From an uncultured SAR86 cluster bacterium (GTDB taxonomy: Bacteria > Pseudomonadota > Gammaproteobacteria > Magnimaribacterales > D2472), in NCBI GenBank assembly GCA_902515455.1, contig CABXUO010000002.1:3961-67960 (forward strand): a stretch of DNA of 64,000 nucleotides, written 5' to 3'. This document shows, one piece after another, positions 7,100 through 30,431 of the stretch. Both the position numbers and the translations under genes were made by a program. Each line of letters opens with the position of its first letter. The stretch's first letter is position 1. The notes under the pieces were generated by a model. The model did no database searches. It was not told the DNA's origin and worked only from the letters and a program-made list of their open reading frames with translations.

Positions 7100-7101
7100 T
7101 T

Positions 7102-8828: not shown

Positions 8829-8840
8829 AGAGGATAAATT

Positions 8841-9455: not shown

Positions 9456-9456
9456 T

Positions 9457-10373: not shown

Positions 10374-10419
10374 TTTTTAAAGCTCTCTCTTTCTTAATCA
10401 AAATTACTAGGACATTAGC

Positions 10420-11526
10420 ATGAATCAATTTCAAACTTTAAAATCAGATTTGTCTCAATCACGAATTATTGACATTGATTCTCTATCTATCGCTGATGGT
10501 GAAATACAAGTTAAGGTGGAGAGTTATGCTTTTACAGCAAACAACGTAACCTATGGAGTAGCAGGTGACACCATTGGCTATTGGAATTTTTTCCCTGCAG
10601 GTAATAATCAAAATGATGAATGGGGCTGTATACCCATGTGGGGGTTTGCAAGAATTATTCACTCAGAAAACAAAGATTTAAAAATTGGAGAGCGACTTTT
10701 TGGTTATTTTCCAGCAGCTGATTCATTAATTCTGAATCCGATTAAAGTTTCTGATCAAAGTTTTGTTGATGGTAAGGAGCATCGCAGAGAGCTTCCGCCC
10801 GTTTACAATAATTATGTCAGACTTGCAGGAGAGCTAAATTATGATTCATCCATGGATGCAGAAAGAGCTCTTTTATTTCCACTTCATATTACAGCCTTCT
10901 GTTTATGCGACTCTTTAGCTGATGATTCGTATCATGAAGCGTCTCAAATAATTATTGTAAGTGCCTCAAGCAAAACGGCTATAGGTTTAGCGCAAGGTTT
11001 ATCCGACGTAGAGCATTCACGAAAAATAGTTGGATTAACGTCAAAAGCTAATTCTGAGTTTGTTGAAAATCTAGGTTGTTATGATGAGGTTATTTCTTAT
11101 GAAGGTCTTGATAAAGTAGATTACTCAGCAGGCTCTGTAATGGTTGATATGGCAGGCAATCGTGAAATTTTAGGCACTCTTCATGGTGAGCTTGGAGATA
11201 ATATGCTGAAATGTCTCACTGTCGGCATGACCCATTGGGATAATGAGACCACCGCAGAAGATGCTTTAGGTCAAGCAATGCTCAGAGATAGAACTGAATT
11301 CTTTTTTGCCCCAGCCCATATTCAAAAACGAATTGGAGATTGGGGGCACGATGGTTATGCTAAAAAAACAAATTTATTTATGGCCAAAAGAGCGCAACAA
11401 AGTAAAGATTGGATGGAGGTAAAAGAAATAGTTGGGTTAGAGAATTTTACTTCAATATATCAAGATGTTGTTTCAGGAAAAATTAATCCAAAAGAGGGAA
11501 TTATTGTAAGTCTTAACAATGATTAA
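10420..11526 (+). CDS. DUF2855-like protein (MDR/ADH-like fold, function unknown)
   Basis: 368 aa. VKVESYAFTANNVTYGVAGDTIGYWNFFPA..WGCIPMWGFARIIHS..GERLFGYFP matches my memory of DUF2855 proteins. Confidence 0.55.
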   Translation: MNQFQTLKSDLSQSRIIDIDSLSIADGEIQVKVESYAFTANNVTYGVAGDTIGYWNFFPAGNNQNDEWGCIPMWGFARIIHSENKDLKIGERLFGYFPAADSLILNPIKVSDQSFVDGKEHRRELPPVYNNYVRLAGELNYDSSMDAERALLFPLHITAFCLCDSLADDSYHEASQIIIVSASSKTAIGLAQGLSDVEHSRKIVGLTSKANSEFVENLGCYDEVISYEGLDKVDYSAGSVMVDMAGNREILGTLHGELGDNMLKCLTVGMTHWDNETTAEDALGQAMLRDRTEFFFAPAHIQKRIGDWGHDGYAKKTNLFMAKRAQQSKDWMEVKEIVGLENFTSIYQDVVSGKINPKEGIIVSLNND

Positions 11527-13171
11527 AAAAGCACCTTATTTTTTTTTAATAATTTTAATCGCTGGTTTTTTGCTATGGAAATTTAAGGTCAATATAATTA
11601 TTTGGGCTTTACCAACAGTCGTTAATTTTATAAATCCTGTTCAAGATAACATTCCAACAAATTGGCCAGAGGGACCCTTAGAGAGACTAGATCAAAATGA
11701 TTCAAGGCCAAATATTATTTTGATTTTGGCAGATGATATGGGTTATAACGATATCTCTTTGCATAATGGTGGCGCAGCAGACGGAACCTTAAAAACTCCC
11801 CATATAGATTCGTTAGCCAAAAATGGTGTTTGGTTCAATAAGGGTTATGCGGCAAATGCTACTTGTGCTCCATCTCGAGCTTCTATTATGACTGGCAGAT
11901 ATGCAACAAGATTTGGATTTGAGTTCACGCCAGTACCTGATTTAGGTCAATTAGTTGTTCGCTGGCTGGCAGAAGAGGATGATGACGATCTAAGAGCAAG
12001 AATAGATAATGAAATAGCAAGAAATTTGCCCTCATTTATGGATCAGGGCATGCCCTCAGATCAGATAACTATTGCAGAAATATTAAAATCGCAAGGCTAC
12101 TATACAGCTCATATTGGAAAGTGGCATCTAGGACATTCATCTGGAATGTCGCCTCTTGATCAGGGTTTTGATGATTCATTGTCATTAGCAGGTGCTTATT
12201 ATCTTCCAGAGGACCATCCAGATGTTGTGAATGCAAAATTTGAAACAAGTATAGATAAGATGGTTTGGTCTGGAAGTCAGTATGCAGCGCGATTTAATGG
12301 CGGTGATTATTTTGCTCCAGATAAATATGTTACAGATTACTATACTGATGAGGCAATTAAAGTTATTGAAAAAAATAAAAATAGACCTTTTTTTCTATAT
12401 TTGAGTCATTGGGCAATTCACAATCCTCTCCAAGCTATCAGAAGTGATGTAGAGCAAATGAGTTATATGTCAGGTCACAATTTAAAAGTTTATTCTGGAA
12501 TGATAAGGGCGCTTGATAGAAGTGTAGGGCAGATAATTCGGACATTAAAAGAATTAAATATTTATGGAAGGACTTTAATTTTTTTCACCAGTGATAATGG
12601 AGGGGCTAATTACATTGAGTTAGAAGATATCAATAAACCATTTCGTGGTTGGAAAATTAGTTTCTTTGAGGGTGGAATTAGAGTTCCATTTATTTTGAGT
12701 TGGCCAGATCAAATTGATCCTGGATTAAAATTTGATAAACCAGTTCATCATTTTGATATCTTCTCAACTATTGCTTCTGCTGCTAATGTACCCATACCAA
12801 TGGACAGAAAAATAGATGGAGTGGATTTAATGCCCTATATAAAAGGAGAGAAAATTACTGATCCTCATCAAACTCTTTTTTGGCGATCAGGAAATCATCA
12901 AGCAGTTTTGCATGAGAATTGGAAATATTTAGTAAGCAAAAAAGAAGGCACGAAATGGTTATTCAATACCGAGCTAGATCCATTAGAAAAAAATAATTTA
13001 ATTAACATCAATCCAAAAAAAACCTCGCAAATCGAGAACCTTTTAGTAACATTTAATTCCGAACAAGCAAACCCTTTATATCCTTCAAGTACCGAGTTAC
13101 CAGTTTTAATAGATAAGTATGATGGGCAAGTCATAGAAGATGCAGATGAATATATCTATTGGTCAAATTAA
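11519..13171 (+). CDS. Cys-type (formylglycine) sulfatase, membrane-anchored or secreted
   Basis: 550 aa. N-terminal hydrophobic segment YFFLIILIAGFLLW, DDMGYND, sulfatase signature CAPSRASIMTGRY, and GKWHLG. 8-nt overlap with the upstream gene. Confidence 0.85.
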   Translation: MIKKAPYFFLIILIAGFLLWKFKVNIIIWALPTVVNFINPVQDNIPTNWPEGPLERLDQNDSRPNIILILADDMGYNDISLHNGGAADGTLKTPHIDSLAKNGVWFNKGYAANATCAPSRASIMTGRYATRFGFEFTPVPDLGQLVVRWLAEEDDDDLRARIDNEIARNLPSFMDQGMPSDQITIAEILKSQGYYTAHIGKWHLGHSSGMSPLDQGFDDSLSLAGAYYLPEDHPDVVNAKFETSIDKMVWSGSQYAARFNGGDYFAPDKYVTDYYTDEAIKVIEKNKNRPFFLYLSHWAIHNPLQAIRSDVEQMSYMSGHNLKVYSGMIRALDRSVGQIIRTLKELNIYGRTLIFFTSDNGGANYIELEDINKPFRGWKISFFEGGIRVPFILSWPDQIDPGLKFDKPVHHFDIFSTIASAANVPIPMDRKIDGVDLMPYIKGEKITDPHQTLFWRSGNHQAVLHENWKYLVSKKEGTKWLFNTELDPLEKNNLININPKKTSQIENLLVTFNSEQANPLYPSSTELPVLIDKYDGQVIEDADEYIYWSN

Positions 13172-13561
13172 ATGGAGAATAAAATGAAAAATGTATTAAG
13201 AGTCATAGCAGGTGTTGCCGGAACTTTATTTTTTTTAAACGGATTGCAATGGATTATAAATCCTGCAAGTATAGCTGACTCATTGGGTATGCCCTTATTA
13301 GAGGGAGTGGGGCTTAGTACTCAAATAGGGGATCTTGGAAGTTTCTTTATCACTGTAGGTGCCATGACATTAATTGGAGCGATTACAACAACACGTCATT
13401 GGTTTTATGCACCATCTATGCTTTTGTTAGTTGCAGCTTTATATAGAACCCTTTCAACTATTTTATATGGTGCTCCATTTGTAATGTCTGCGATTGTTGT
13501 TGAAATTAGCGTAGGCCTCTTTTTAATATTTGCTGGATCAAGGATCGCGACCAAGGATTAA
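13172..13561 (+). CDS. Small integral membrane protein (hypothetical)
   Basis: 129 aa with about four hydrophobic segments. It starts immediately after the sulfatase stop. I recognise no motif. Confidence 0.5.
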   Translation: MENKMKNVLRVIAGVAGTLFFLNGLQWIINPASIADSLGMPLLEGVGLSTQIGDLGSFFITVGAMTLIGAITTTRHWFYAPSMLLLVAALYRTLSTILYGAPFVMSAIVVEISVGLFLIFAGSRIATKD

Positions 13562-13562
13562 A

Positions 13563-14618
13563 ATGATGAAACTGCTTAAATATATCTTAATTGTTGCTGT
13601 AATTGGCATTATCTTAGTGTCGGTTTTGACAAGGGTTCCAGATGTTCAAGATCGGCTTATGTTTAGATTTGTTCAAACTCTTGGCGGCACCAATGCTGAT
13701 CTAAATGACAATTCATTATCAGCTGTTGTATGTGGATCTAGATCTCCACTTCCATCTCCAGGAAGGGCACAAACGTGTGTCTTAGTAAATGCAGGCGGTA
13801 ATTATTACGTTGTAGATATTGGAGACGGTAGCGCAGTAAATCTTAATAATTGGAGAATAGACGCGAACAAGATTCGAGCAACTTTGTTAACTCATCTTCA
13901 CTCAGATCATATTTCAGACCTTGCAGATTTGCATTTAATGACTTGGATTAATACCTCGCATTCAAAGCCTATGGATGTTTATGGTCCTGCAGGAGTTGAG
14001 TTAGTAACTCAAGGTTTTGAGGACGCGTATCAGTTGGACTATCAATATAGACATGAGCATCATGGTGATGAAATAGCGCCAAAAGATATTGCTGGGTTTA
14101 ATCCTTTTCCGATAGATTTATCTAACCCAGTAATTATTGATGAAGATGGCTTGAAGGTGACAGCCTTCAAGGTAACTCATGATCCGATTGTTCCCGCTTT
14201 AGGATTTCGTTTTGACTATAAAGGGAGATCAATTGTTATTAGTGGAGATACTATTTACGACGAGAATTTAATCAAACATGCAAAAGATGCTGATGTTTTA
14301 TTTCATGAAGCACAAGCAAACCATCAATTGGATATTATGAGAAAAGCTTTAGCAAATAATGAGGGGCTAGTCACAATTCTAAATGACATTGAGACTTATC
14401 ATACAACACCTGTAGAAGCCGCTAAGGTAGCAAATTTGGCAAATGTAGATCATTTATTTTTTTATCATTTAACTCCAGCACCAAGAAATAATTTAACAGA
14501 AAGAATGTTTTTTCGAGGAGTTAATGACATTAGGAAAGAATGGAGCTCTACAAAAGATGGCACTATGGTTGTTTTACCATTAGACTCAGATGAAATAATA
14601 GTTACTGAGATAAATTAA
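13563..14618 (+). CDS. MBL-fold metallo-hydrolase (RNase Z/ElaC-like) with N-terminal membrane anchor
   Basis: HxHxDH motif in LLTHLHSDHISD. N-terminal helix LLKYILIVAVIGIILVSVL. ATG at 13563 lies 1 nt after the upstream stop with AAGGA upstream, so the track's start at 13530 is rejected. Confidence 0.75.
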   Translation: MMKLLKYILIVAVIGIILVSVLTRVPDVQDRLMFRFVQTLGGTNADLNDNSLSAVVCGSRSPLPSPGRAQTCVLVNAGGNYYVVDIGDGSAVNLNNWRIDANKIRATLLTHLHSDHISDLADLHLMTWINTSHSKPMDVYGPAGVELVTQGFEDAYQLDYQYRHEHHGDEIAPKDIAGFNPFPIDLSNPVIIDEDGLKVTAFKVTHDPIVPALGFRFDYKGRSIVISGDTIYDENLIKHAKDADVLFHEAQANHQLDIMRKALANNEGLVTILNDIETYHTTPVEAAKVANLANVDHLFFYHLTPAPRNNLTERMFFRGVNDIRKEWSSTKDGTMVVLPLDSDEIIVTEIN

Positions 14619-15406
14619 TGGATGTAAAAAATAAAAGAGTTGTTGTCACTGGTGCAGCTAGTGGTATTGGTAAGGCTCTATGTGAAGCTTTTTATCAAGC
14701 AGGAGCTCAATCACTTATTGCTGTAGATATGAATCTAGATGGTGCGCAAGAAACAGCTGATTCAGTTAATGGTATTGCCATTCAGGCGAATGTTGGAAAT
14801 GAAAAAGACATTATCAATGTGATCAAAAAAGCAGATGAGCACGTTGATGGCACAGACATTTTTTGTTCTAACGCAGGGATTGGTGGCGTGCCAGGATTTT
14901 TTGAAGTTGAAGCATCAGATTGGCAGAATATCTGGGATGTGAATGTTCAATCTCATATCTTCGCAGCCAAACATGTTTTACCTCAAATGATTGAAAGAGG
15001 GGAAGGCTATCTAGTTAATACATCATCAGCAGCCGGGCTTTTGACTCAGTTAGGAGCAGCAGGTTATTCAGTTACCAAAGCAGCTGCAGTAAGTTTCGCA
15101 GAATGGCTCAAGATTACTTATGGAGAAAAGGGGATTGGTGTTTCTTGTCTTTGTCCTCAAGCAGTAAGAACAGCAATGACTGCTCAAGGTCCCGGTGTTG
15201 CTGGTGTAGATGGAATGATGGAGCCAGATGTGGTTGCAAAAGAAGTTTTAAAGTGCATTGAAGAGGAAAAATTTTTAGTATTACCTCATATAGAAGTAGC
15301 TGAGTATGTTTCTAGAAAGGGTAATGACAGGGATAGATGGATTTCCGGAATGCAGAGACTGCAAAAGCAATATGAAGATTTTTTAACCCCAGTTGATATG
15401 AAGTAA
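14618..15406 (+). CDS. Short-chain dehydrogenase/reductase (SDR)
   Basis: Motifs TGAASGIGKA, NAGIG and YSVTK (YxxxK). 1-nt stop/start overlap with the MBL gene. Confidence 0.85.
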   Translation: MDVKNKRVVVTGAASGIGKALCEAFYQAGAQSLIAVDMNLDGAQETADSVNGIAIQANVGNEKDIINVIKKADEHVDGTDIFCSNAGIGGVPGFFEVEASDWQNIWDVNVQSHIFAAKHVLPQMIERGEGYLVNTSSAAGLLTQLGAAGYSVTKAAAVSFAEWLKITYGEKGIGVSCLCPQAVRTAMTAQGPGVAGVDGMMEPDVVAKEVLKCIEEEKFLVLPHIEVAEYVSRKGNDRDRWISGMQRLQKQYEDFLTPVDMK

Positions 15407-15419
15407 ACAAGGAGAAAAC

Positions 15420-16388
15420 ATGAAAACAAAAATTACAGAATTATTTGGTATAGAGCATCCTATTATTCAGGGTGGAATGCATCATGTAGGGTTTGCTGAA
15501 CTAGCTGCAGCAGTATCAAATGCAGGTGGCCTTGGAACTATAACTGGTCTGACACAAGGAACTCCTGAAAAGCTTGCAAATGAGATTGCTCGTTGCAAGG
15601 AGATGACTGACAAACCTTTTGCTGTAAATCTTACATTTTTGCCTTCATTAACTCCTCCAGATTATCCTGGATTGGTCGATGTAATTATTGGTGGAGATGT
15701 TCCAATCGTTGAAACAGCTGGAAGAAATCCTGCTGAATATTTGCCTGCTTTAAAGGAGGCTGGAATTAAAATTATTCACAAGTGCACATCGGTCAGGCAT
15801 TCATTAAAAGCGCAATCAATTGGATGCGATGCCGTCTCAGTTGATGGTTTTGAGTGTGGAGGCCATCCAGGTGAAGATGATATTCCTAATTTTATTCTTT
15901 TGCCAAGAGCAGCTGATGAACTAGAAATTCCATTTGTTGCCTCAGGTGGTATGGCTGACGCAAGAAGTTTAGTTGCTGCAATGGCTCTTGGAGCAGAGGG
16001 TATGAATATGGGTACTAGATTTATCGCAACTCAAGAAGCGCCAGTTCATCAAAATGTTAAAGATTCAATTGTTAATGCTTCTGAATTAGATACTAGATTA
16101 ATTATGCGCTCCCTAAGAAACACTGAAAGGGTTCTTAACAATGAAGCAGTTGAGCGTCTTATGGAAAAGGAGAGTGCTTTAGGGGATCAACTTACCTTCC
16201 AAGATATCGCTGACGAGGTTGCCGGAGTTTATCCAAAGATTATGCATGAGGGAACTATGGAGGCTGGTGCTTGGTCATGTGGGATGGTTGCGGGGCTGGT
16301 AAATGATATACCAACTGTTAAAGAGCTTATCGACGGAATTATGAATGAAGCTGATAGTATTATTGAAAAGAGATTAAGTAATTTTTAA
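15420..16388 (+). CDS. Nitronate monooxygenase / FabK-like FMN oxidoreductase (NMO family), copy 2
   Basis: 322 aa. Motifs HPIIQGGM, AAVSNAGGLG, GFECGGHPG and ASGGMADA. Clearly paralogous to 6176-7099. Confidence 0.85.
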   Translation: MKTKITELFGIEHPIIQGGMHHVGFAELAAAVSNAGGLGTITGLTQGTPEKLANEIARCKEMTDKPFAVNLTFLPSLTPPDYPGLVDVIIGGDVPIVETAGRNPAEYLPALKEAGIKIIHKCTSVRHSLKAQSIGCDAVSVDGFECGGHPGEDDIPNFILLPRAADELEIPFVASGGMADARSLVAAMALGAEGMNMGTRFIATQEAPVHQNVKDSIVNASELDTRLIMRSLRNTERVLNNEAVERLMEKESALGDQLTFQDIADEVAGVYPKIMHEGTMEAGAWSCGMVAGLVNDIPTVKELIDGIMNEADSIIEKRLSNF

Positions 16389-16404: not shown

Positions 16405-17358
16405 TTATATTAATATTCCACTTACTCTATCGATCAACCAGAAAAAGCCCATGCCACCTAAAATTAATGAGGTAAAAGTGGCTGATTGTTTGTAAAAGTT
16501 AAATTTTTGCGAAAGCCATATAACTGATCCAAATATAGGGACTAACAAAAGCTGACCTGCTTCAATACCCAGGTTAAAGAATAGTAAAGAGAGTAGCAGC
16601 TGCTCATTACCGATACCAATACCCGTCAAAGCATTAGCGAACCCCAGTCCATGCAATAATCCAAAGCCAAAAGCAACAATCCAAGGCGTAGATTGATATT
16701 TTTTACTTTCACTGACCTCTAAACCCAGGTAAATAATAGTAAGTGCAATTATTGCCTCTACAGTTGCTTGTGGAAGTGAGACTAGCTCGAATACTGATAG
16801 ACCTAAAGTAATGCTGTGTGCGAGGGTAAATGCAGTAATTGTTTTTACAGCATTGAAAAAACCTGAAATTAAAAAAAGCAGTCCTAAGATGAAAAGAATA
16901 TGGTCATTTCCACTCATCAGATGATCAATGCCTAGGGTGAAGTATCCAATAGGATAAACCTGCTCTTGAAAGGGAATCTCTATCGATGATCTCTTAAGGT
17001 TCATAAGGCCTTCAAACACCTCTCCGTTGGAATGGGTAATTGTTATCAAGGCATCTGTGAGCAAGCTTAAATTGTTTACTGAAATTATTTGACCTTTTAA
17101 AGAGCTCTCACAAATTAAGGATATTCTTTCAACTAAATATTTCCCCTTTTGACTGGGAAGTTGACTATTTCTCTCACAATTATCAGGGAAAAAAACTTCT
17201 GCTCTTGCACCAATGTTTTTTATTGGATACATCCAGCTAACTTGATATTCATTATTAGCAAGCTCATCTACAACCAAGTGGGCCGGATTAAACTCATGAG
17301 AGAATAATGCAGTTGAATAAAAAAGAATGACTAATGATTTAGCAAGTTTGTAAATCAT
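16405..17358 (-). CDS. HupE/UreJ-family metal permease with extended N-terminal extracytoplasmic domain
   Basis: 317 aa. Signal-like N-terminus, then an approximately 140-aa soluble region, then GIDHLMSGNDHILFILGLLFL plus several hydrophobic helices typical of HupE/UreJ. TAATG stop/start overlap with the upstream PPIase-like gene. Confidence 0.6.
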   Translation of the reverse strand: MIYKLAKSLVILFYSTALFSHEFNPAHLVVDELANNEYQVSWMYPIKNIGARAEVFFPDNCERNSQLPSQKGKYLVERISLICESSLKGQIISVNNLSLLTDALITITHSNGEVFEGLMNLKRSSIEIPFQEQVYPIGYFTLGIDHLMSGNDHILFILGLLFLISGFFNAVKTITAFTLAHSITLGLSVFELVSLPQATVEAIIALTIIYLGLEVSESKKYQSTPWIVAFGFGLLHGLGFANALTGIGIGNEQLLLSLLFFNLGIEAGQLLLVPIFGSVIWLSQKFNFYKQSATFTSLILGGMGFFWLIDRVSGILI

Positions 17359-18158
17359 TAGAACTTATAATTTGGATTGATAATAACCCTATATTGAGAT
17401 TTTATTTCATTAATATATTGAGCAATAGCTTTATCTTGAGCCTCTGAAAGATAGTCTTGCTGTACCTTTATTAGAACTTTTTCTAGAGGGGGAGAAAATC
17501 CACTTTTAACTTCTTTCAACAATACTATGTGATATCCAAAAGCAGATTCATGAGGCCCAGACCACTCATTTACAGGAAGATTTTTAATCGTAGAGAAAAA
17601 TAATTCTCCAAAATTTTTTTTAATTTCATTTGCGCTATTTTGATAAAAGTTTTTTCCTAAAAAATATGGATCTCCCTTTAATTCCACTCCATTGGTTTGA
17701 TAATTGTTGAAAGCTTTAGTCGCTCTTTCTTTTGCGCTAGATTCTTTTGAAAAATAATGATGAGAAAACGAATATGTTGCAGGAACATAGTAGCTGCTTT
17801 TATTTTGATCAAAAAATTTTTCTAATTCTTCTTGAGAGGGGTCATCTGGTACAGTTTCTTGTTTTAAGAAAGTAATTTTTTGAGCTAATCTTCTTTTAAT
17901 GATTCTATCTTCCTCATCTAAATTTAAGAGCAGAGCTTCCCTATATAAAATCTCCTCTTGAACAAAGTTATTGATAATGTTGACGATCTCTTCATCATTT
18001 GGAGGCCTGCCAACTTGGGACTTCCAAGCCGACAGCAGACTGGTTAACTCTTGATCTGAAATATAAATATCTTTTGAGTCTTGTTCAGAATTAAATCCAA
18101 TATCAAGAACAAAGATTAATAAACCAATTAAAAAAAATACAATTATCCTAAGGCTCAC
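17358..18158 (-). CDS. Membrane-anchored parvulin (PpiC)-type peptidyl-prolyl isomerase-like protein
   Basis: 266 aa. N-terminal helix IIVFFLIGLLIFVL and C-terminal parvulin-like SGPHESAFGYHIVLLKEV. It starts 15 nt downstream of the DUF3604 gene. Confidence 0.6.
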   Translation of the reverse strand: MSLRIIVFFLIGLLIFVLDIGFNSEQDSKDIYISDQELTSLLSAWKSQVGRPPNDEEIVNIINNFVQEEILYREALLLNLDEEDRIIKRRLAQKITFLKQETVPDDPSQEELEKFFDQNKSSYYVPATYSFSHHYFSKESSAKERATKAFNNYQTNGVELKGDPYFLGKNFYQNSANEIKKNFGELFFSTIKNLPVNEWSGPHESAFGYHIVLLKEVKSGFSPPLEKVLIKVQQDYLSEAQDKAIAQYINEIKSQYRVIINPNYKF

Positions 18159-18173
18159 TACAAATCCTAAACT

Positions 18174-20264
18174 TTATAATGGAATAATATCTAAATCTTT
18201 TGATTCAGGTATATACCAAATCGGAGATGACCACGCTCGCTCTTGAATAGTTTCATGCAGGTCAGGCCTGGGCTTTTCTCCTGCCCTCAATGCGTCCCAT
18301 GTAGACCATCTGCAAGTCGGATTTTCTAGAACTCGAACATAATAAAAAGCTTTTACAGCAGGATCAAAATCTGGATCTATCCATTTAGTTTTGAGCTCTC
18401 CTGCTCCAACATCATTTGAAATGGAGCAATCATTGATATTTACGCGCGCACCATTATCAGGACAGCGATTAGTTAAAGGATCCACGGTTAGACCATCTGA
18501 GCATGCAACATCATAAACTTTTTCCTTTGGAGTTCCTGATGCAGTTTCAACCCATCCTTTAATAATTTGAACTCTTTGAAGAGGTGCTCCTAATTTATCC
18601 CGTTGAGCCCACACTAAAAATTGTGGTGTTTGATTACCTTGACTAAATAAATCAGCTCCCATAGTAACTCCTTTTGCATATGCATCTTCAACCATATCTT
18701 CAGAGTTCAAATCAATTGATTCCATATCAAAGCCGGCAAAAAACCTAACTGCCATCCTAGTTCCTGTTGTTGCGAATGTTTCTTTTCTTTTGAAGGCTTG
18801 AAAAATAGAATCCCGAGTATTTTCTTCAGCCCAAGCAACTGCCAATCCAGATGCACTCCATTGATCAAATCCTACATCAGCATAAGTCTTACCTTCAATC
18901 TGTTTTGTGCTCACTGGTTGATTGAAGTCTATTGAATATTGTGTAAGTTGGTCAATTCTATCTTGTGAAAGAGGCACACTTCCTCTTCCCATATCTGTGC
19001 CATCTAGGACACCAACTTTTGACCAATAATTATTTTCATCATAAGCACCTGCTCCAGTATGAGTATCACTGGATCCTATGAGACCAAATTTATAGGGATT
19101 GCCTCGGCCTTCCCAATCTAAAGTAAGTCCTCTTAAATATGCATCTCTCACATAGCCCCCTTGAGGCATGCTATAAGTAGGTGGTCTGCTGCCAACTCTT
19201 TTATCCATGATTTCAAAATCTGCCCATTCGTCATCTGGAGAGAGGAGTGGATGCGTATCAGATGTACCTTTAACTTGAGTCATTTCAACAACTGGCTCAT
19301 TTCTCATTCGCTTTTCAGCATATTCTTCGTTAATTGGATTACCTCTAAATGTTTCAACTTCAAACATTTGACCATTTGAGCCATTGCTGTTGTGAGGCAT
19401 CGCCAAAGAATCGACACCTTTATCTCTTAAATTATCCATCCATGTCCAAAGATCCTCTGGATTAATGGAATCAATTCTAGTCCAAGGTCTGATTGGCGCA
19501 TTTGAGGAGTTAAAAATAACATTTCTATGTAAATTACCTCCCTCTACATCTGTTGAGGTGGTAAATTCATACCCTATAAAAGTAGTAAATTTTCCAGGAT
19601 CATTGAATTCCTCAGCAGCATTTGCAACATCAGCCCATGCAGATCTATGCACATCATAATCAAAAGACTTCAGGGCTAATTGAATATTATTAGTTAACCA
19701 GGCACCAATATAATTTGGATTCCACCAAGGATGAGGTATTACTATTGCTTGTCTAACAACTGAACTAAAAAGGTCTGCTCTCTCACCAGTTGATTCGACC
19801 GTAACATTTTCAGGCCTATTCAAATTATGCATTGGTATAGTCCATTCATTTTTCGACATTTTTGATGAAGTATCAGCATAGTTTTCTATCATGCCCATGT
19901 AGAAACCATGATCAGTAACTGCGTAAAAATCTAATGGCTCTCTTAATTTCATATCAAAACCCAAGGGATGTTTAATTGCCCGACCAGTAGCAAACTTGTA
20001 TGCGTCATATGGAGTTGCAGTTACACCAAAAATATAAGCATCAAATGAATACTTTGTATGAACGTGCAGATCACCATAGTATGGATTTCTGAAGGGATTG
20101 GATGGAATATCAGTCTTATTTGATGAACTTTCGATTGAGAAATCTACTATCTCTAGGGCTGAATTACTCTGGAATATACTGAAGGAGTTAGTTGCATATA
20201 GATAAAATACAAGGGAGACAATAATCAATCCAATAAAAGATTTGCTTAATTTCATTTTTTCCAC
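18174..20264 (-). CDS. DUF3604-type protein (PHP-like metal-dependent hydrolase fold), exported; copy 1
   Basis: 696 aa with an N-terminal hydrophobic segment. Motifs YYGDLHVHT, DFYAVTDH, GYEFT, HRNVIF, PHNSN, GSSDTH, and C-terminal ERAWSSPIW. The family is recalled from memory. Confidence 0.65.
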   Translation of the reverse strand: MEKMKLSKSFIGLIIVSLVFYLYATNSFSIFQSNSALEIVDFSIESSSNKTDIPSNPFRNPYYGDLHVHTKYSFDAYIFGVTATPYDAYKFATGRAIKHPLGFDMKLREPLDFYAVTDHGFYMGMIENYADTSSKMSKNEWTIPMHNLNRPENVTVESTGERADLFSSVVRQAIVIPHPWWNPNYIGAWLTNNIQLALKSFDYDVHRSAWADVANAAEEFNDPGKFTTFIGYEFTTSTDVEGGNLHRNVIFNSSNAPIRPWTRIDSINPEDLWTWMDNLRDKGVDSLAMPHNSNGSNGQMFEVETFRGNPINEEYAEKRMRNEPVVEMTQVKGTSDTHPLLSPDDEWADFEIMDKRVGSRPPTYSMPQGGYVRDAYLRGLTLDWEGRGNPYKFGLIGSSDTHTGAGAYDENNYWSKVGVLDGTDMGRGSVPLSQDRIDQLTQYSIDFNQPVSTKQIEGKTYADVGFDQWSASGLAVAWAEENTRDSIFQAFKRKETFATTGTRMAVRFFAGFDMESIDLNSEDMVEDAYAKGVTMGADLFSQGNQTPQFLVWAQRDKLGAPLQRVQIIKGWVETASGTPKEKVYDVACSDGLTVDPLTNRCPDNGARVNINDCSISNDVGAGELKTKWIDPDFDPAVKAFYYVRVLENPTCRWSTWDALRAGEKPRPDLHETIQERAWSSPIWYIPESKDLDIIPL

Positions 20265-20363
20265 CCCTAAAGTTGTTGAAGACCAATTAATATGTCAATT
20301 GTAAGACTAAAAATGCAAGAATGCTTATACTATGTTTCTAAAAATTAAGAGCTAAATCTTAAA

Positions 20364-21725
20364 ATGATTAAATACTTCAAAAATTTTATGAGTAGGCGAA
20401 CAATATCTGCCAATATTCGAAATAAATTGATGAATACATTTTCCAGTTACGAAATTTTTAAAGATACTAGATTACAATCAGAAGCTTCAAGGCAAAATGA
20501 TCAAAGACCACATGAAGTTTTTTATTTTCATAAAGTTGACGATCCTTATTCACATTTAACCATTCAATCCGTTAAAAAACTTCAAACATCCTATGATATT
20601 AAGCTAAGGCCTGTTTTGGTGGGTAGTGAAAGTTTAGAGGCATTGCATGAACCAACTTTATACAATCATTATTGTCTTCAAGATGTGCAGCGAATTGCAC
20701 CATTCTATGGCATTGAATTTCAAGCAAAATCTTATCCAACTAAAGAGCTTGTCAGCCTGGCTAACTCAATTCTTTCTGCAGTTAATGATCAGAATTTTGT
20801 GGACATAGCTACCCAAGTAAGCTCAGCCTTGTGGCGAGGAGATTCTGTAACACTTGATGAGATTTCTTCCTCCTACTTCGCGACAACTAGCCAAGTTAAA
20901 GAGAAGTTAAAAATTGGGAACGAAATTAGAAATGGTAAAGGTTATTATTTTGGCTCAGCTTATTACTATGAAAAAGAACTTTATTGGGGCCTAGATAGAC
21001 TTCCATATTTAGAGGAAAGACTTACTGAGCTTGGAGCAAGAAAGAAATCTGAAAATAATGAAATATGCTCATTAAATCTTAAGGCTCCTAAAACTTTAGT
21101 TTCTGAGAAAAAAGTTAACCTTTATTACTATCCTTCATTAAACAGTCCTTATACCTTTGTCAGCACAAAAAGAATACGAGAGATTCGAGACGAGTACCCA
21201 ATTAACTTATTCATGAAACCAGTTTTGCCTATGCTCATGAGAAAGATGAATATACCAACTAACAAAGCAAAATATATTCTCTCAGATGCAGCTAGGGAGG
21301 GAAGAAGATATGGAAATGAAATGAAAATCATTCATTCTCCAATTGGAAATCCAGCAAGAAAGTCATATTCTTTGTTTCCTGCAATTGATAAGGCTGGAAA
21401 AGGCTTTGAATATATTGAAGCTTTGCTAAAAGCTTCCTTTCAAGATGGGATAAATATTGGCGATGATAATTTTTTAGAAAATCTGGTAACCAATTTAGAG
21501 CTCGACTGGGAATTGATTAAGAAAGATCTTTATTCAAAGCACTGGCAAAAAATACTTAAAGATAATGTTGAGGACATGTACTCTGGTAATTGCTGGGGTG
21601 TTCCAAGTTTTAAAATTACCGATGAGGACGGCTCAAACTCCTTCTTTACTTGGGGGCAAGATAGGATATGGTTACTTAAAGAAGAGATTTACAAACGTTT
21701 AGAGAAAAGCCATGAAAAATTATAA
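20364..21725 (+). CDS. Fused tandem DsbA-like / 2-hydroxychromene-2-carboxylate isomerase (kappa-GST-like) protein
   Basis: 453 aa. Two halves, each with an N-terminal beta-strand plus (D/S)PY(S/T) (VFYFHKVDDPYSHL; VNLYYYPSLNSPYTFV) and a C-terminal WG.DR motif (LYWGLDRL; FTWGQDRI). No CxxC and no signal peptide. Confidence 0.55.
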   Translation: MIKYFKNFMSRRTISANIRNKLMNTFSSYEIFKDTRLQSEASRQNDQRPHEVFYFHKVDDPYSHLTIQSVKKLQTSYDIKLRPVLVGSESLEALHEPTLYNHYCLQDVQRIAPFYGIEFQAKSYPTKELVSLANSILSAVNDQNFVDIATQVSSALWRGDSVTLDEISSSYFATTSQVKEKLKIGNEIRNGKGYYFGSAYYYEKELYWGLDRLPYLEERLTELGARKKSENNEICSLNLKAPKTLVSEKKVNLYYYPSLNSPYTFVSTKRIREIRDEYPINLFMKPVLPMLMRKMNIPTNKAKYILSDAAREGRRYGNEMKIIHSPIGNPARKSYSLFPAIDKAGKGFEYIEALLKASFQDGINIGDDNFLENLVTNLELDWELIKKDLYSKHWQKILKDNVEDMYSGNCWGVPSFKITDEDGSNSFFTWGQDRIWLLKEEIYKRLEKSHEKL

Positions 21726-23679
21726 TTATTTTTTTTTAGTAATTGTTCTTAGTTTTGTTGCATGTTCAGATCCCAATAATCTTGATCACTTTGCAGACGT
21801 CATTAAAGACCAGTCTTATGAGGATTTTCAGCTTCAATCAAGACCGCCTGCCAATCCTGACAAAAATGCGTATTTTGGTGATTTGCACGTTCATACTGCC
21901 AATTCTCTTGATGCATATACATTCGGAACAATTACATCTCCAACAGATGCATACCGATATGCTCAAGGAGATGCAATTTTACATCCATCAGGTTATCAAA
22001 TTCAGCTATCAAGACCTTTAGATTTTTATGCTGTTACTGATCATGCATATTTTCTGGGCCTTCTTAATGAAGCAGCCGATACCGCTTCAGAGTTTTCGAG
22101 ATATGAGGTTTCACAGCCGCTGCATGACTTAAATAATCCAGCTGGCACAGGCTTTATATCTCTTATGAAAAGAGCCAATCTTTTTAGACCTTTAGCTCGA
22201 TCAATTGTTGAAGGTATTGAAAATGAGGAAATTGACAGATCTCTTGTATCTAAAATTGGAAGAAGTGTATGGCAGGAAACAATTGAAGCTGCAGATAATG
22301 CATATAGACCAGGACTTTTTACTACTTTTGCTGGCTATGAATATACTTCTGGTACTGGTATATATGATAATTATTTACATCGAAATGTTATCTTTCGTAG
22401 CACTCAAAATTTACCCTTAAATCTTTTTTCTAGGGATGATCCTGATCCTGAAAAGCTTTGGGATTGGATGGATAGACTAAGAGAGAATGGAATTGAAAGT
22501 TTAGCGATACCTCATAACACAAACCTTTCTGGAGGGGCTGCATTTTCACTTTATGATTTTAATGGCGGCCCAATAGATCAAGAGTATGTTAAAAAAAGAT
22601 CTTTGAATGAGCCGTTGGTTGAAATTACCCAAACAAAAGGAACTTCTGAAACACATCCTTTCTTATCGAAGAATGATGAGTGGGCAGCTTTTGAAACAAA
22701 ATCTGGTGTTAAAGATGAGGAGCTTGTAAGTAATATTAAAGGTAGCTATGTAAGGGATGCATATTTACGTGGCTTGACTTTAGAGGAAAAAGGCATAGGT
22801 AACCCTTTTAAATTTGGCCTGATTGGATCAAGTGATACCCATGTTTCAGGCTCTTCTGAAAGTGAAGAATTCTTTTTTTCAAAAGCAGGACTATTGGATG
22901 GAGAGCCAGACTTAAGGGGCTCAATTCCTTTCAGTCGATTCTATGGAACATTTCTCAAAATTGCTCAGCCAGAAATGTTTAAAGAAGTAGATGGAAGAAA
23001 CTATTTTGCGGCAAGCACTCGTTTGATTCATTTTTCATCTTCTGGTCTAGCTGGAGTTTGGGCTGAGGAAAATACACGTGAAGCTATTTATGACGCTTTG
23101 CGTCGAAAAGAGACCTTTGCTACAAGCGGCCCACGAATGAAAGTTAGGTTTTTTGCAGGATATAATTTTGAAAATTTTCAGCTTAATGATCTATCTCTGA
23201 TTCAAGATGCTTACAAAACAAGTATGCCCATGGGCGGAACGTTAAATATTGATTCAAATAAAAATCCAACTTTTTTAGTTTGGGCAATAGCCGATCCTCT
23301 GGGTGCTCCATTACAAAGGACTCAAATTGTAAAAGGATGGCTGGAAGATGGAGAGCATAAAGAAAAAGTTTTTGATGTGGCTTGCTCTGATGAAATGAAT
23401 GTTGATCCCAGTAATCATCGTTGTCCTGATAATAATGCATGGGTAGATTTAACTGATTGTTCAATTAGTGCAGATTCAGGATCTAGAGAGATGAAGGTTT
23501 TTTGGCAAGATCCCGAATTTAAAATTAATCAAAAAGCATTTTATTACGCTAGAGTTATTGAAAATCCAGTTTGCAGGTGGTCAACATGGGATTCGATCAG
23601 AAATGGTCAGAAACCAAGATCCGATATATCTTCAACAATACAAGAAAGAGCCTGGTCTTCGCCTATTTGGTTAAAGTGA
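21712..23679 (+). CDS. DUF3604-type protein (PHP-like), probable lipoprotein; copy 2
   Basis: 655 aa. N-terminus FFLVIVLSFVAC is lipobox-like. It carries the same motif set as copy 1 (YFGDLHVHT, DFYAVTDH, GYEYT, HRNVIF, PHNTN, GSSDTH, ERAWSSPIW). 14-nt overlap with the upstream gene. Confidence 0.65.
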   Translation: MKNYNYFFLVIVLSFVACSDPNNLDHFADVIKDQSYEDFQLQSRPPANPDKNAYFGDLHVHTANSLDAYTFGTITSPTDAYRYAQGDAILHPSGYQIQLSRPLDFYAVTDHAYFLGLLNEAADTASEFSRYEVSQPLHDLNNPAGTGFISLMKRANLFRPLARSIVEGIENEEIDRSLVSKIGRSVWQETIEAADNAYRPGLFTTFAGYEYTSGTGIYDNYLHRNVIFRSTQNLPLNLFSRDDPDPEKLWDWMDRLRENGIESLAIPHNTNLSGGAAFSLYDFNGGPIDQEYVKKRSLNEPLVEITQTKGTSETHPFLSKNDEWAAFETKSGVKDEELVSNIKGSYVRDAYLRGLTLEEKGIGNPFKFGLIGSSDTHVSGSSESEEFFFSKAGLLDGEPDLRGSIPFSRFYGTFLKIAQPEMFKEVDGRNYFAASTRLIHFSSSGLAGVWAEENTREAIYDALRRKETFATSGPRMKVRFFAGYNFENFQLNDLSLIQDAYKTSMPMGGTLNIDSNKNPTFLVWAIADPLGAPLQRTQIVKGWLEDGEHKEKVFDVACSDEMNVDPSNHRCPDNNAWVDLTDCSISADSGSREMKVFWQDPEFKINQKAFYYARVIENPVCRWSTWDSIRNGQKPRSDISSTIQERAWSSPIWLK

Positions 23680-23692
23680 AATTATTAACACA

Positions 23693-24496
23693 ATGAGTAA
23701 GTCAAAAAATAATCTTGCACTTGTCACAGGCGCCTCTGACGGAATAGGAGCTGAATTCGTAAAAATTTTAGCAAGTCGAGGATATGATTTAGTTCTTGTT
23801 GCTCGTCGTGAAGAGAAACTTAAGGAGTTAGCAGTTAAATTGACCGATGAATTTGGGATCAGTTGTACTGTTATGGCAACAGATTTATCAGAGCCTAAGG
23901 CAGCTCAAAGTTTGTTCACTCGAGTCGAAGAAAGAGGCTTACAAGTAAATTTTTTAATCAATAATGCAGGACTTCTTCACAATGGATTTTTTACAAAAAT
24001 TAGCCTTGAAGCTCAAGAAAAAATGATTCAAGTTAATGTCATGGCGCTGACCACTTTAACTCATTTATATGCAGACAATATGTCCTCTAATGGAGGCGGG
24101 CATATACTTAATGTCGCTTCACTGGCAGGTTGGATGGCTATTCCAAATCAGAATGTTTACGCTGCATCAAAAGCTTATGTTGTATCTTTTTCTCAAGCAT
24201 TATCAAATGAAATGATTGCTTCAAATAGTGGGGTTAAAGTAACAGCATTATGCCCTGGTTATACAGCTACAAAAATGATGGATAATCCTGACCAAGGTGC
24301 CACTCTTCGCATTCCATCAAGTATGATGATGTCGGCTAAAGATGTTGCTGAGATTGGCATAAAAGCATGTTTTGCAGGCAAAGATATTGTAGTTCCAGGT
24401 CTTGCTAATAAGTTCACCACTATCATCACTCGTCTCTTTTCAAAATCGTTAATAACAAAGATTTTTGGTTCTTTCTACCGTAAGAATATGCACTGA
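23693..24496 (+). CDS. Short-chain dehydrogenase/reductase (classical SDR)
   Basis: Motifs TGASDGIGAE, NNAG and YAASK. Confidence 0.85.
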   Translation: MSKSKNNLALVTGASDGIGAEFVKILASRGYDLVLVARREEKLKELAVKLTDEFGISCTVMATDLSEPKAAQSLFTRVEERGLQVNFLINNAGLLHNGFFTKISLEAQEKMIQVNVMALTTLTHLYADNMSSNGGGHILNVASLAGWMAIPNQNVYAASKAYVVSFSQALSNEMIASNSGVKVTALCPGYTATKMMDNPDQGATLRIPSSMMMSAKDVAEIGIKACFAGKDIVVPGLANKFTTIITRLFSKSLITKIFGSFYRKNMH

Positions 24497-24527
24497 AAAG
24501 TTAGAATTATTTTGCTAAGGTTTTCAT

Positions 24528-25508
24528 ATGAGCGAACAAGCTATTAAAAAAATACTTATAACTGGAGCTAATGGATTCATTGGTGGATCATTGATGAGTT
24601 ATTATCAAAATAATGGTCAAGATGTTGTTGGCGTTGATCTTATTGGTAATGGTGACAATATTATAGAGGGTGATATATCTCAGCCAGAAACAATTAATCA
24701 GCAGCTACAAGAATGCGATGTGATTATTCACACAGCTGCTTTGGTCTCTAATGCAATGCAAGATTCCGATATGTGGCGAGTTAATGTCTTAGCAACCCGT
24801 AACTTAATTCAAGCAGCAAAAGAGCATAAAGTTAGACGTTTCGTTCAAATTTCATCAATAGTCGCTTACGGAAATTCTGCAGAAGGTGAGTTAGATGAAA
24901 CACATCCTGTGCATGCCGATGGTGGAAGCTATGTACTGACAAAACTAGCCTCAGAGCATGTTGTCTTAAGCGAGCAGGCTAATGATGATATAGAAGTAGT
25001 AATCATTCGACCAGGAGATGCATATGGTCCAGGTAGTCGTCCTTGGATTATTGCTCCATTGGAAGCAATTGCTAAAAATCAGTTTATGTTGCCCGAAAAA
25101 GGAGCGGGATTTTTTAGACCTATATATATTGATGATTTAGTTAGAGGTATCGCAATGGCATCGAGCCATCCAGATGCTGATGGCGAAATTTTTAATTTAT
25201 CTTGCGAGGGTTATATGTTTACCAAAGACTATTTCACCCCTCACTACCAATGGTTAGGTAAAAAGCGACCCATGGTAGTTTCGACCAACCTAGCTTTAAA
25301 AATCTCAGCCATAGCATCAAAATTAGCCGATCTTATGGGCAATCTGAATGAAGCCTCGCCATCAACAGTCAAACAGCTTTCAACTAAGAGTTGGTTTTCA
25401 ATTAAAAAAGCAGAACGAGTCCTTGGATGGAGGCCTGAAATTTCATTTGAGGAGGGCATGAAAGTAACTCATGAGTGGGCTCAGAAGGAAGGATTAGTAG
25501 GCAAATAA
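24528..25508 (+). CDS. NAD-dependent epimerase/dehydratase-family (extended SDR, 3-beta-HSD-like) protein
   Basis: 326 aa. Motifs ITGANGFIGGSL and YVLTK (YxxxK). Confidence 0.8.
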   Translation: MSEQAIKKILITGANGFIGGSLMSYYQNNGQDVVGVDLIGNGDNIIEGDISQPETINQQLQECDVIIHTAALVSNAMQDSDMWRVNVLATRNLIQAAKEHKVRRFVQISSIVAYGNSAEGELDETHPVHADGGSYVLTKLASEHVVLSEQANDDIEVVIIRPGDAYGPGSRPWIIAPLEAIAKNQFMLPEKGAGFFRPIYIDDLVRGIAMASSHPDADGEIFNLSCEGYMFTKDYFTPHYQWLGKKRPMVVSTNLALKISAIASKLADLMGNLNEASPSTVKQLSTKSWFSIKKAERVLGWRPEISFEEGMKVTHEWAQKEGLVGK

Positions 25509-25632
25509 TTTACGTAATTACTTTATAAACCTCAATTTATCATTGATTTTTTGATCACGAAAAAGGCTATACTTATGTATATAAGTAGATCTTTATGCGT
25601 TATTAAATTTTAATTATGACTTGGTGAAATCA

Positions 25633-27249
25633 ATGCGTCTGTGGAATGGATGGGGAAATGAAAATAGTGAGCTAACTATGGAGCTTAATGACGGTCTTCG
25701 AGCGTTATTAGAAGCTTTAGTAGGGCCAGGAACTTCACTTAATCAAGCAACCTTAAAAGAGGTAATTTCTAACGTACCCACTTCTCGTCTCGATGACCAT
25801 ACTCTAATTAAAACTGATCCGGAAACACGAGTACGACATGCGCGAGGTCAGAGTTTGCCAGATTGGTTAGATATGCATAGCGGCAATATTGATACATTTC
25901 CTGATGGCGTTGCATTTCCAGAATCTACAGAGCATGTAAGAGAACTTCTTGCTTATGCTAGAGAGAATGACTTAGTTGTGATTCCTTATGGTGGAGGAAC
26001 ATCAGTTGTTGGTCATATAAATCCTATGAAGAGCGACAGACCAATATTAACCATAGATATGGGAAATATGAGTTCTTTATTGAGCATTGATACTGAAAGT
26101 CAACTGGCTACTTTTGGAGCTGGAACTCCAGGTCCTGTCGTGGAAGAAGCTCTGAAAGAACATGGCTATACATTAGGTCACTTTCCACAATCCTGGGAGC
26201 TATCTACTTTAGGGGGATGGGTGGCAAGTCGATCAAGCGGTCAACAATCTCTTCATTATGGCCGCATAGAAAACATGTTTGCTGGGGGAATTATCGAAAC
26301 TATGAATGGCACCATGACAATTCCCACCATCCCAGCATCTTCAGCTGGTCCTGATATTCGTGAGATGATTCTTGGCTCTGAGGGCCGCATTGGTATTATT
26401 ACCGAAGTAACTGTACGGATAACACCTTTGCCTGAGGAAGAAAAATTCCAAGTGATCTTTTTTCCTTCTTGGCAAATTGGTATTAACGCTGCAAGAGAAT
26501 TGATTCAACAGCGAGTTGCATTGTCTATGGTTCGATTAAGTAATCCACTTGAGACAACGAGTCTATTATATATGGGTGCAGGAAGTGATACTAGTGGAGT
26601 GGTTGCACTGGAGAAATCCTTATCTGAAAAGGGTATTGGTGAAGGAAAAGTGATGATGACATTTGGAGTTACTGGCTCAGCTCGTCATTGCGAAACTGCA
26701 TATCAACTTGCAATTGATCATTGTGCTGCCCTCGGTGGTTTTGTAGATCAGTCTGGTCTTGGAGAGAACTGGGCTCATGGTCGATTCCGTGCTCCATATC
26801 TTCGTGACCCCCTTGGTGCAGAGGGATATATAGTAGATACCATGGAGACGGCAGTTGATTGGTCAAAAGTTTCTGAAGCTGCAGAAAATATAGAAGAAGC
26901 AATTCGAACTGCATTAGATGACGAGGGTGAAAGAGTTCATGCTTATACGCATTTATCTCATGTCTATGGCCAGGGATCGAGTATTTACACTACTTATTTG
27001 TTTCGCATAGGTGAAAGTTATGAGTTAGGAAAGAATAGATGGATGAAATTAAAAAAAGCTGGTGCTGATCAGATTGTCGCCCATGGTGGTACCATTAGTC
27101 ATCAGCATGGTGTTGGAAGCGATCACAAGAACTATCTTGCTGAAGAAAAGGGTGAGTTTGGCATCGCTGCAATTCATAGCTTATGCAAGCAATTTGACCC
27201 CTATGGACAAATGAATCCTGGGAAATTACTCCCTGACAATGAGCAGTAA
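25633..27249 (+). CDS. FAD-linked oxidase of the alkyl-dihydroxyacetone-phosphate synthase (AGPS)-like subfamily
   Basis: ATG at 25633; the track's TTG at 25621 is less likely. RLWNGWG opening, [53 protein letters not shown] and [11 protein letters not shown] parallel human AGPS blocks ([71 protein letters not shown]) as I recall them. Confidence 0.7.
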   Translation: [538 protein letters not shown]

Positions 27250-27255
27250 GCTATC

Positions 27256-28848: not shown

Positions 28849-28860
28849 AATGAGGTTATC

Positions 28861-30411: not shown

Positions 30412-30431
30412 CTTTATTTGTGGAGCAATTG

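Follow-up and report, generated by a model that had tools for sequence, protein, structure and literature searches.

Introduction

How enzymes that fold outside the cytoplasm acquire their metal is poorly understood, and most of the known metalloenzyme maturation systems are cytoplasmic. For exported hydrolases, the lactococcal PrtP/PrtM pair and the PrsA-type foldases provide examples from Gram-positive bacteria in which a membrane-anchored parvulin maturation protein is encoded beside the hydrolase that depends on it, in that case a serine proteinase and without any metal component. Here we describe a three-gene locus encoding a DUF3604 protein, a parvulin-like protein and a HupE_UreJ_2 permease, found in a 64,000-nucleotide stretch of DNA (“the window”) from an uncultured member of the SAR86 cluster, which ranks among the most abundant groups of bacteria in surface seawater. 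The window corresponds to positions 3,961 to 67,960 of contig CABXUO010000002.1 (assembly GCA_902515455.1), and all coordinates given below are those of the window unless a locus from another genome is named. A preliminary description of this stretch had proposed that an envelope metallo-hydrolase is encoded here together with its own folding helper and its own metal supply.

HupE/UreJ permeases have been reported as embedded in metalloenzyme gene clusters (PMC2667541), and their gene neighbourhoods in marine bacteria are highly variable (PMC4771312), so that a missing hydrogenase or urease is not in itself unusual. In 2025 the “anglerases” were described, whose signal peptide is followed by a mature protein that starts with His and carries an Ig-like domain fused to HupE/UreJ-2; their Ang-1 domain (PDB 9GCE) binds Cu and Ni with a Kd of 74 and 220 nM, respectively, and a membrane metal site formed by His194, His201 and His229 has been predicted for the Ang-2 protein (PMC12537917). 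On the hydrolase side, the PHP superfamily is characterised by nine His/Asp/Glu ligands (PMC5460133, PMC6616362). One of its members, the trinuclear Zn phosphatase YcdX of E. coli, is described as relying on a dedicated chaperone, YcdY, to mature its Zn cofactor (PMC4464133), while another, Sb-PDE of Sphingobium TCM1, is a Sec-secreted phosphodiesterase with Zn as its main metal, a sensitivity to thiol reagents and functionally important cysteines (PMC5460133).

A conserved three-gene module

The window is AT-rich (GC ~36%) and has its nearest relatives among SAR86-clade gammaproteobacteria. The trio consists of three minus-strand open reading frames (ORFs), at 18174-20264 (DUF3604, 696 amino acids (aa)), 17358-18158 (parvulin-like, 266 aa) and 16405-17358 (permease, 317 aa). 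The DUF3604 stop is separated by 15 nt, including an AGGA ribosome-binding site, from the GTG start of the parvulin-like gene at 18158, and the stop of the latter overlaps the permease start in a TAATG at 17358-17360; coordinates and junctions are legible in the sequence as they had been given in the preliminary description. The one correction concerns the beginning of the first gene, whose ORF does extend to a GTG at 20264, but for which the ATG at 20255 (18174..20255, 693 aa; MKLSK..., with AGGGG before it) is the likelier start, because homologs begin with MKLSK and a 99%-identical cluster representative is 693 aa long. Residue numbers of DUF3604 used below are those of the 696-aa ORF.

Linkage of the three genes was studied from two sides. 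The DUF3604-side sample comprised 80 loci (L001-L080), one genome per species, with 92-50% identity, whose ORFs were searched with iterated hidden Markov models (HMMs) built from the window proteins; the partner-side sample comprised 80 metagenome loci that were fetched with an alignment of non-SAR86 HupE-like proteins only. Among L001-L050 (at least 53% identity, mostly SAR86) the parvulin-like gene was found in 29 of the 32 testable loci and the HupE-like gene in 26 of these 32, nearly always on a single strand and arranged as DUF3604, parvulin, HupE, while L051-L080 (Halieaceae and relatives) had a parvulin-like gene in 0/17 and a HupE-like gene in 2/17. Starting from the partners, the parvulin-like gene lay directly upstream of the HupE-like one in 60 of 64 testable loci, and a DUF3604 gene was present in 21 of the 23 loci with enough flank on both sides. 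The co-localisation that the preliminary description had proposed to quantify is strong, therefore, from the DUF3604 side as well as from the partner side.

With both samples combined, the complete trio was present in 80 loci with a GC content of 31-69%. Using D for DUF3604, P for parvulin and H for HupE, the architectures were D-P-H (53 loci), D-D-P-H (14), D-P (7), P-H-D (4), D-H (3) and D- D+ P H (3), and D-x-H also occurs among the variants of gene order. In 38 loci the parvulin stop overlaps the HupE start by 4 nt, and in a further 26 the overlap is 1 nt, a recurrence that points to translational coupling of these two genes; the median gap between DUF3604 and the parvulin-like gene is 21 nt, and each parvulin/permease pair is accompanied by one to three DUF3604 paralogs. 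Clustering of the 1,719 neighbouring ORFs of the 160 loci yielded no fourth recurrent gene family, and hydrogenase, urease and B12 genes were absent from the recurrent neighbours in these loci. The flanks vary by lineage, with catabolic genes in the window, tRNA-Arg genes in another SAR86 clade and the isc operon in other gammaproteobacteria. Partnered DUF3604s are spread over at least three deep sequence clusters, while the orphans all fall within one.

The trio is thus a conserved, self-contained module that moves as a unit, as follows from its GC range, its occurrence in several deep clusters, its varied gene order, its differing flanks and the lack of a fourth family. Nearly all of the sampled SAR86 genomes carry it, and it also occurs in sediment, soil and rhizosphere metagenomes. 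Within it, the parvulin/permease pair looks accessory to DUF3604, since the pair is almost never found without DUF3604, DUF3604 is often found without the pair, and one pair serves for up to three DUF3604 paralogs.

Several loci depart from the common pattern. In one SAR86 subclade (L005, L006, L007, L012, L013, L016; ~9750-9890 and 14-21 kb) the module comes immediately after tRNA-Arg(TCG), has tRNA-Ser(GGA) on its upstream side and is followed a few kb later by tRNA-Arg(ACG); this setting, flanked by tRNA genes and unlike that in the window, suggests relocation as a unit. Another SAR86 group (L033, L037, L038, L039, L045, L047, L049) has two tandem DUF3604 genes ~4.7 kb from the parvulin/HupE pair (e.g. 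L038 14240-18897), and in the spacer lie ORFs of 417 aa and of 1124 aa, the latter with a beginning that resembles a biotin carboxylase; all of these genes share one strand. Two loci (L089, L117) have the pair with no DUF3604 within several kb on either side, and may have another client; in L089 the pair comes after carboxylase-like ORFs. Pfam-annotated contexts show the trio in SAR86, DUF3604 followed by Rotamase_2 on a Myxococcota-labelled contig, DUF3604 with a methyltransferase and HupE_UreJ_2 in Oceanicoccus, and DUF3604 alone in other Pseudomonadales. In Oceanicoccus, HTCC2143 and a related metagenome contig (L056/L084, L075, L088), it is a 240-aa class-I methyltransferase (Methyltransf_11) that replaces the parvulin-like gene, and in the HupE-like proteins of these loci the mature N-terminus is predicted to read Asp-Asp and not His-Glu.

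Two kinds of candidates were discarded. The next families considered as a fourth partner (acyl-CoA dehydrogenase-like, SDR, ABC, TonB receptor and isc genes) reflect lineage-specific synteny, and apparent parvulin-HupE fusions in high-GC loci (e.g. L157) turned out to be long spurious ORFs in another frame.

The DUF3604 protein

DUF3604 ‘A’, the first protein of the trio, matches PF12228 with 745.9 bits (cut-off 20.4, E=3.9e-224) over profile positions 3-591 of 591, and belongs to a family with at least ~8,000 clusters of homologs at 90% identity. Looked up by its exact sequence, the protein matched no recorded contig. The His/Asp-rich motifs that had been likened to a PHP-fold site (GDLHVHT, AVTDH, GYEFT, HRNVIF, PHNSN and GSSDTH) are all present in its translation, and their His, Asp and Glu residues are the same throughout 33 diverse homologs. 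The residues H67, H69, D118-H119, E233, H246, H291, D400 and H402 do not vary, either among 33 or among 53 diverse DUF3604 sequences, and keep the PHP order HxH, His, Glu, His, His, DxH. In the AlphaFold2 model (pLDDT 75, pTM 0.81), which consists of seven barrel strands, as in the distorted (beta/alpha)7 barrel of PHP proteins, followed by a C-terminal Ig-like beta-sandwich, these residues are located at or just past the ends of the seven strands. The sole significant Foldseek match of this model in the PDB was 3e38, a PHP-like metal-dependent phosphoesterase (E=1.2e-5, prob 1.0), at an identity of ~10% and a TM-score of 0.28 by query and 0.50 by target.

Among the NCBIfam models, the CehA/McbA PHP-type metallohydrolase domain was matched weakly by 29 of the 33 DUF3604s (best E=6e-4, far below the 80-bit cut-off), and each of the other models by at most one of them; in the window protein this match spans the HxH...DH region. 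Sequence and profile searches of DUF3604 against the PDB gave nothing meaningful and no solved relative, and the DNA of the fetched loci contained no canonical PHP proteins for a profile-profile comparison. Three independent lines, namely the invariant ligand pattern, the model with its match to 3e38 and the CehA/McbA matches, support the view that DUF3604 is a PHP-type metallohydrolase, with a predicted multi-metal site. This agrees with the multi-metal site envisaged in the preliminary description.

An export-type N-terminus was found in all DUF3604s examined: 45 have a lipobox, others a classic Sec signal, and the SAR86 ‘A’ type a hydrophobic anchor. Given these Sec, lipoprotein or anchor signals, DUF3604 must gain its metal in the periplasm, a location with which four conserved Cys in the C-terminal domain are in keeping. 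A division into Tat export for partner-less and Sec export for partnered DUF3604s was considered and rejected, as Tat-like motifs occurred in 2/20 orphans and 2/90 partnered members. Two partner-less DUF3604s from Halieaceae/Aequoribacter (L076, L077) start with MILSPRRTLTL... followed by a lipobox, possibly a Tat-lipoprotein signal, unlike other members.

In the searchable literature DUF3604 appeared only as the annotation of a Chlamydia transposon insertion, and its Pfam accession gave nothing, consistent with the earlier statement that no experimentally assigned function is known for the family. The insertion was recovered in CT_425/CTL0684 of Chlamydia trachomatis, a 622-aa protein (PMC11925237). 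That this obligate intracellular bacterium retains DUF3604 in its reduced genome, apparently without the partners, may inform the core function of the family.

The parvulin-like protein

The 266-aa protein (17358..18158, minus strand) has a parvulin (PpiC-type) domain and matches Rotamase_2 (PF13145) with 54.4 bits (cut-off 27, E=2.9e-14), while the stricter Rotamase model scored 18.9 against a cut-off of 21.7. It starts with a transmembrane (TM) helix, followed by a SurA-N-like helical region (EEILYREA...IIKRRLAQK) and the parvulin-like domain at ~107-228, and a single hydrophobic helix is found at the N-terminus of all parvulin-like members (16 diverse members aligned). A profile of these 16 members retrieved from the PDB the structures of PEB4 (3rfw, 1.2e-9), HP0175 (5ez1, 1.9e-8), Cj1289 (3rgc) and SurA (3e-7), aligned over positions 33-262 so that both the helical and the parvulin parts were covered. 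Most members retain both parvulin His positions, in F-x-H-x-Y-F-S and in G-x-H, and H210 is nearly invariant; L068 has lost them, and the Cys/Asp position could not be assigned. On these sequence features, the protein is best described as a putative membrane-anchored periplasmic chaperone of the SurA/PEB4/PrsA type.

The HupE_UreJ_2 permease

The permease (16405..17358, minus strand, 317 aa) matches PF13795 with 146.3 bits (cut-off 24.5, E=7.5e-43) over residues 139-284 and also matches PF04955 (31.8 bits, cut-off 23, E=1.3e-7). Like the DUF3604 and Rotamase_2 matches, the PF13795 match lies far above its cut-off, in agreement with the families named in the preliminary description, where this protein had been assigned to HupE/UreJ; the protein belongs with PF13795 rather than with the canonical HupE of hydrogenase and urease clusters. 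It comprises a signal peptide (residues 1-20, 17299-17358), a periplasmic beta-sandwich domain (21-135, 16954-17298) and a six-helix membrane domain (~137-316). The extra N-terminal soluble domain noted earlier is borne out by ~138 N-terminal residues outside the PF13795 match, and in the AlphaFold2 model (pLDDT 81) residues 26-127 form the beta-sandwich, followed by six helices.

Signal cleavage is predicted at ...ALFS|HEFNPAHL, which makes His21 the first residue of the mature protein, and all homologs have a small residue at -1. The N-domain begins with His or Asp and an acidic residue in 104 of 118 members; across 104 family members, the +1 residue is His (69), Asp (34) or Asn (1), the acidic residue being followed by x-(R/N)-P. 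Cys61 and Cys83 are conserved. An exhaustive search placed the N-domain family in 80 representative clusters, with the domain starting at residue ~19-26 of proteins of ~314-339 aa; by its sequences it appears to be a small, fast-evolving family fused to the permease. In the membrane domain, H146-x3-G150-x-D152-H153, H181, E201, H236, N262, E266 and Q269 are invariant (14 and 24 sequences), and the spacing of H146, H153 and H181 (+7/+28) equals that of His194/201/229 in the Ang-2 protein. The HupE-like profile and its N-domain gave nothing meaningful against the PDB. The N-domain is best described as anglerase-like in architecture and not as a member of Ang-1, and by analogy the permease is predicted to capture metal through it.

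Proposed function and alternatives

We propose that the operon encodes a periplasmic metallohydrolase together with its own folding helper and metal-delivery protein, a reading to which we give about even chances. DUF3604 would be the catalytic part, Sec-exported and either membrane-tethered or a lipoprotein, with a PHP-type barrel that probably holds up to three metal ions, and would act in the periplasm on a bond of the ester type, a phosphoester being the most plausible, by hydrolysis. The parvulin-like protein would take unfolded DUF3604 from the Sec translocon and keep it fold-competent. The periplasmic beta-sandwich of HupE_UreJ_2, with its N-terminal His (Asp in some lineages), would capture a metal ion, while the permease, through its conserved His/Asp/Glu site, would either feed the N-domain from the cytoplasm or buffer a local metal pool, and the captured metal would then be handed to the folding PHP site. 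In this scheme, that DUF3604 is a client of the chaperone, that metal is handed over to it and in which direction, which metal this is and what the substrate would be are all our deductions, as are the parts of a folding helper and a metal supply, to which the protein families and the linkage of the genes have led us.

The preliminary proposal is borne out as far as families, linkage and export are concerned; its functional core, the helper and supply roles, is inferred, and it left a conflict over transport direction unaddressed. The three observations on which its refutation had been made to depend turned out otherwise: the families co-localise, the model and the conservation pattern fit a PHP-type multi-metal site and the searchable literature assigns DUF3604 no function.

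A number of observations weigh against the proposal. Characterised HupE/UreJ proteins bring Ni or Co into the cytoplasm (PMC2667541), and the anglerase work also proposes uptake (PMC12537917); since import would remove metal from a periplasmic enzyme, the supply model needs either hand-over by the N-domain or outward transport. Many DUF3604 genes lack both partners nearby, so that maturation may proceed without them or with partners encoded elsewhere. The N-domain has no sequence or profile match to 9gce (Ang-1) at E<=10, its Foldseek match to that domain is weak (E=0.088, TMt 0.37, prob 0.96), and Asp takes the place of His at +1 in one third of the permease family. As for DUF3604, the Pfam PHP model (PF02811) gave no match even at E<=10, and two ligand segments of the structural model have low confidence (pLDDT ~57 for residues 291-300 and ~38 for 401-410). 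Finally, the region upstream of the trio (20256..20363) contains no recognisable Fur, Zur, NikR, MntR or Pho operator. Across 53 upstream regions, matches to E. coli-type consensus sequences for the same five were no better than in shuffled sequence, with a Pho-like box in 1/53 loci against ~2% expected.

A narrower form of the proposal sees the module as a dedicated periplasmic metallation machine, in which a SurA-like holdase of the inner membrane and a permease-tethered “angling” domain would together load the multi-metal PHP site after Sec export, with the channel not importing but working outward or shuttling metal to the periplasmic domain of its own protein. We regard this version as possible but doubtful. 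If true, it would be the first dedicated metal-insertion system described for a Sec-exported hydrolase, and both DUF3604 and this branch of PF13795 would gain their first functions.

The strongest competitor, which we nevertheless consider unlikely, is metal acquisition: DUF3604 would hydrolyse an organic metal ligand or metallophore, or a metal-phosphoester complex, the N-domain would catch the released ion, the permease would import it and the parvulin-like protein would assist assembly. This would let HupE/UreJ and the published anglerase model run in their uptake direction, and would suit a trio that is confined to periplasm and inner membrane and that may comprise several hydrolase paralogs per importer. 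Trace metals in the open ocean are mostly organically bound, and the module is abundant in SAR86, an open-ocean oligotroph; the logic of scarcity is less compelling for the soil and rhizosphere modules with a GC content up to 69%. Moreover, an accessory hydrolase would be expected to show the reverse of the observed pattern, in which DUF3604 often occurs without the permease and the pair almost never without DUF3604. Nor is there consistent linkage to TonB-dependent receptors or other uptake components, or a Fur/Zur/NikR-type operator upstream.

Less probable still is that HupE_UreJ_2 anchors DUF3604 or imports a non-metal product, with the parvulin-like protein as an assembly factor. We know of no PF13795 member with a demonstrated transport substrate, and the translational coupling of parvulin and permease would suggest a stoichiometric membrane complex. 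However, the three invariant His together with Asp, Glu, Asn and Gln in the membrane domain are typical metal ligands and match the predicted anglerase site, the His/Asp plus acidic start of the N-domain is a metal-chelating arrangement, and most DUF3604s have a lipid or TM anchor of their own and need no anchoring partner. That the three genes are merely neighbours with independent envelope roles, brought together by shared regulation or by chance synteny in a few lineages, is very improbable: parvulin-type chaperones and HupE-family permeases are general-purpose families, and SAR86 genomes are compact with many short intergenic gaps, but the adjacency persists over the full GC range, the deep DUF3604 clusters, several gene orders and unrelated flanks, the partner-side counts given above are high, and stop/start overlaps occur in 64 loci.

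Surroundings of the module in the window

The trio shares an intergenic region of 108 nt (20256..20363), in which a TTGACA hexamer is visible, with a divergent DsbA-like gene, and this region presumably holds the promoter of the three-gene operon. The divergent gene (20364..21725, plus strand) encodes a 453-aa DsbA-like protein of the HCCA-isomerase type (PF01323, E=2.1e-16), in which the DSBA model covers residues 256-442 only and not the N-terminal half. It overlaps by 14 nt the start of a second DUF3604 gene, DUF3604 ‘B’ (21712..23679, plus strand), whose 655-aa product is 49% identical to A, matches the family with 734 bits (E=1.6e-220) and has a lipoprotein-type N-terminus (...LSFVAC).

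DUF3604B, which lies 1.4 kb from the trio on the opposite strand, had not been linked to the module in the preliminary description. It is a probable second client; elsewhere, a lone chaperone/permease pair is commonly accompanied by two or three DUF3604 copies. The DsbA-like protein was rejected as a periplasmic disulfide helper or core part, as it has no export signal and is kept only in close SAR86 relatives; its gene is probably lineage-specific and outside the core module. It was found beside DUF3604B in 6 loci only: the pair (20364-23679) is kept in L001-L003 and L020 and lies nearby in L043 and L044, all of them close SAR86 relatives.

No urease, hydrogenase or B12 genes were found within the 64-kb window, in agreement with the earlier remark on hydrogenase and urease. 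The segments on either side of the module (6176-16388 and 23693-33796) are dense in catabolic or detoxification genes, including three GSTs, two nitronate-monooxygenase paralogs, three SDRs, a DUF2855 protein, a sulfatase with an N-terminal anchor, an exported MBL-fold hydrolase, an FAD-linked oxidase, a glycerol-3-phosphate dehydrogenase, an FGGY kinase, a carboxyltransferase and an alpha/beta hydrolase. This catabolic region is syntenic in close SAR86 relatives (L082, L083) and not further out. The remainder of the window consists of catabolic and housekeeping genes.

Comparison with known systems

The component families of the module are known, as is the logic of a metalloenzyme with dedicated accessory genes; the combination of the three, its periplasmic setting and the distinct N-domain family are undescribed as far as the searchable literature shows. 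The three-gene operon makes periplasmic metal loading directly testable, and the linkage of DUF3604 to the pair offers an experimental entry point to this family.

YcdX and YcdY resemble the trio in that the gene of a PHP-type multi-metal hydrolase lies beside that of a dedicated chaperone. However, both of these E. coli proteins reside in the cytoplasm, the chaperone YcdY is a TorD/NarJ family member and not of the parvulin/SurA type, and their operon contains no transporter; DUF3604 is also ~2.5 times larger than YcdX, with large insertions and a C-terminal beta-sandwich. The two-domain layout of PHP barrel and beta-sandwich is shared with BVU_3505 (3e38), whose own function is unassigned. 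Sb-PDE, unlike DUF3604, matches PF02811 and has 441 aa, against ~690 aa without a PF02811 match in DUF3604.

The HupE of Rhizobium leguminosarum and other HupE/UreJ proteins (PF04955) share with the trio the position of a metal-permease gene within the cluster of the metalloenzyme that it serves, as well as H-x3-G-x-D-H in the first membrane helix, the canonical HupE motif being HPxxGxDH. In the trio, by contrast, the client is periplasmic and Sec-exported instead of cytoplasmic, hydrogenase, urease and B12 genes are absent, and the window permease is better matched to the sister family PF13795 and carries an extra periplasmic domain.

Anglerase-HupE/UreJ-2 shares most with the window permease, namely the signal peptide, the mature N-terminal His, the periplasmic Ig-like beta-sandwich, the PF13795 membrane domain and the His triad at +7/+28. 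The window N-domain differs in being shorter (~115 aa), in having no detectable sequence similarity to Ang-1 and a weak fold match to 9gce, and in a family in which a third of the members have Asp at +1. The neighbourhoods reported for anglerases contain DUF4198, indigoidine-A-like and PfkB genes, with Rotamase_2 three times and DUF3604 never (PMC12537917), so that the trio is not described there, whereas the partners of the permease studied here are essentially always a parvulin-like protein and DUF3604. The module would thereby extend the anglerase concept to a new domain family with a defined client.

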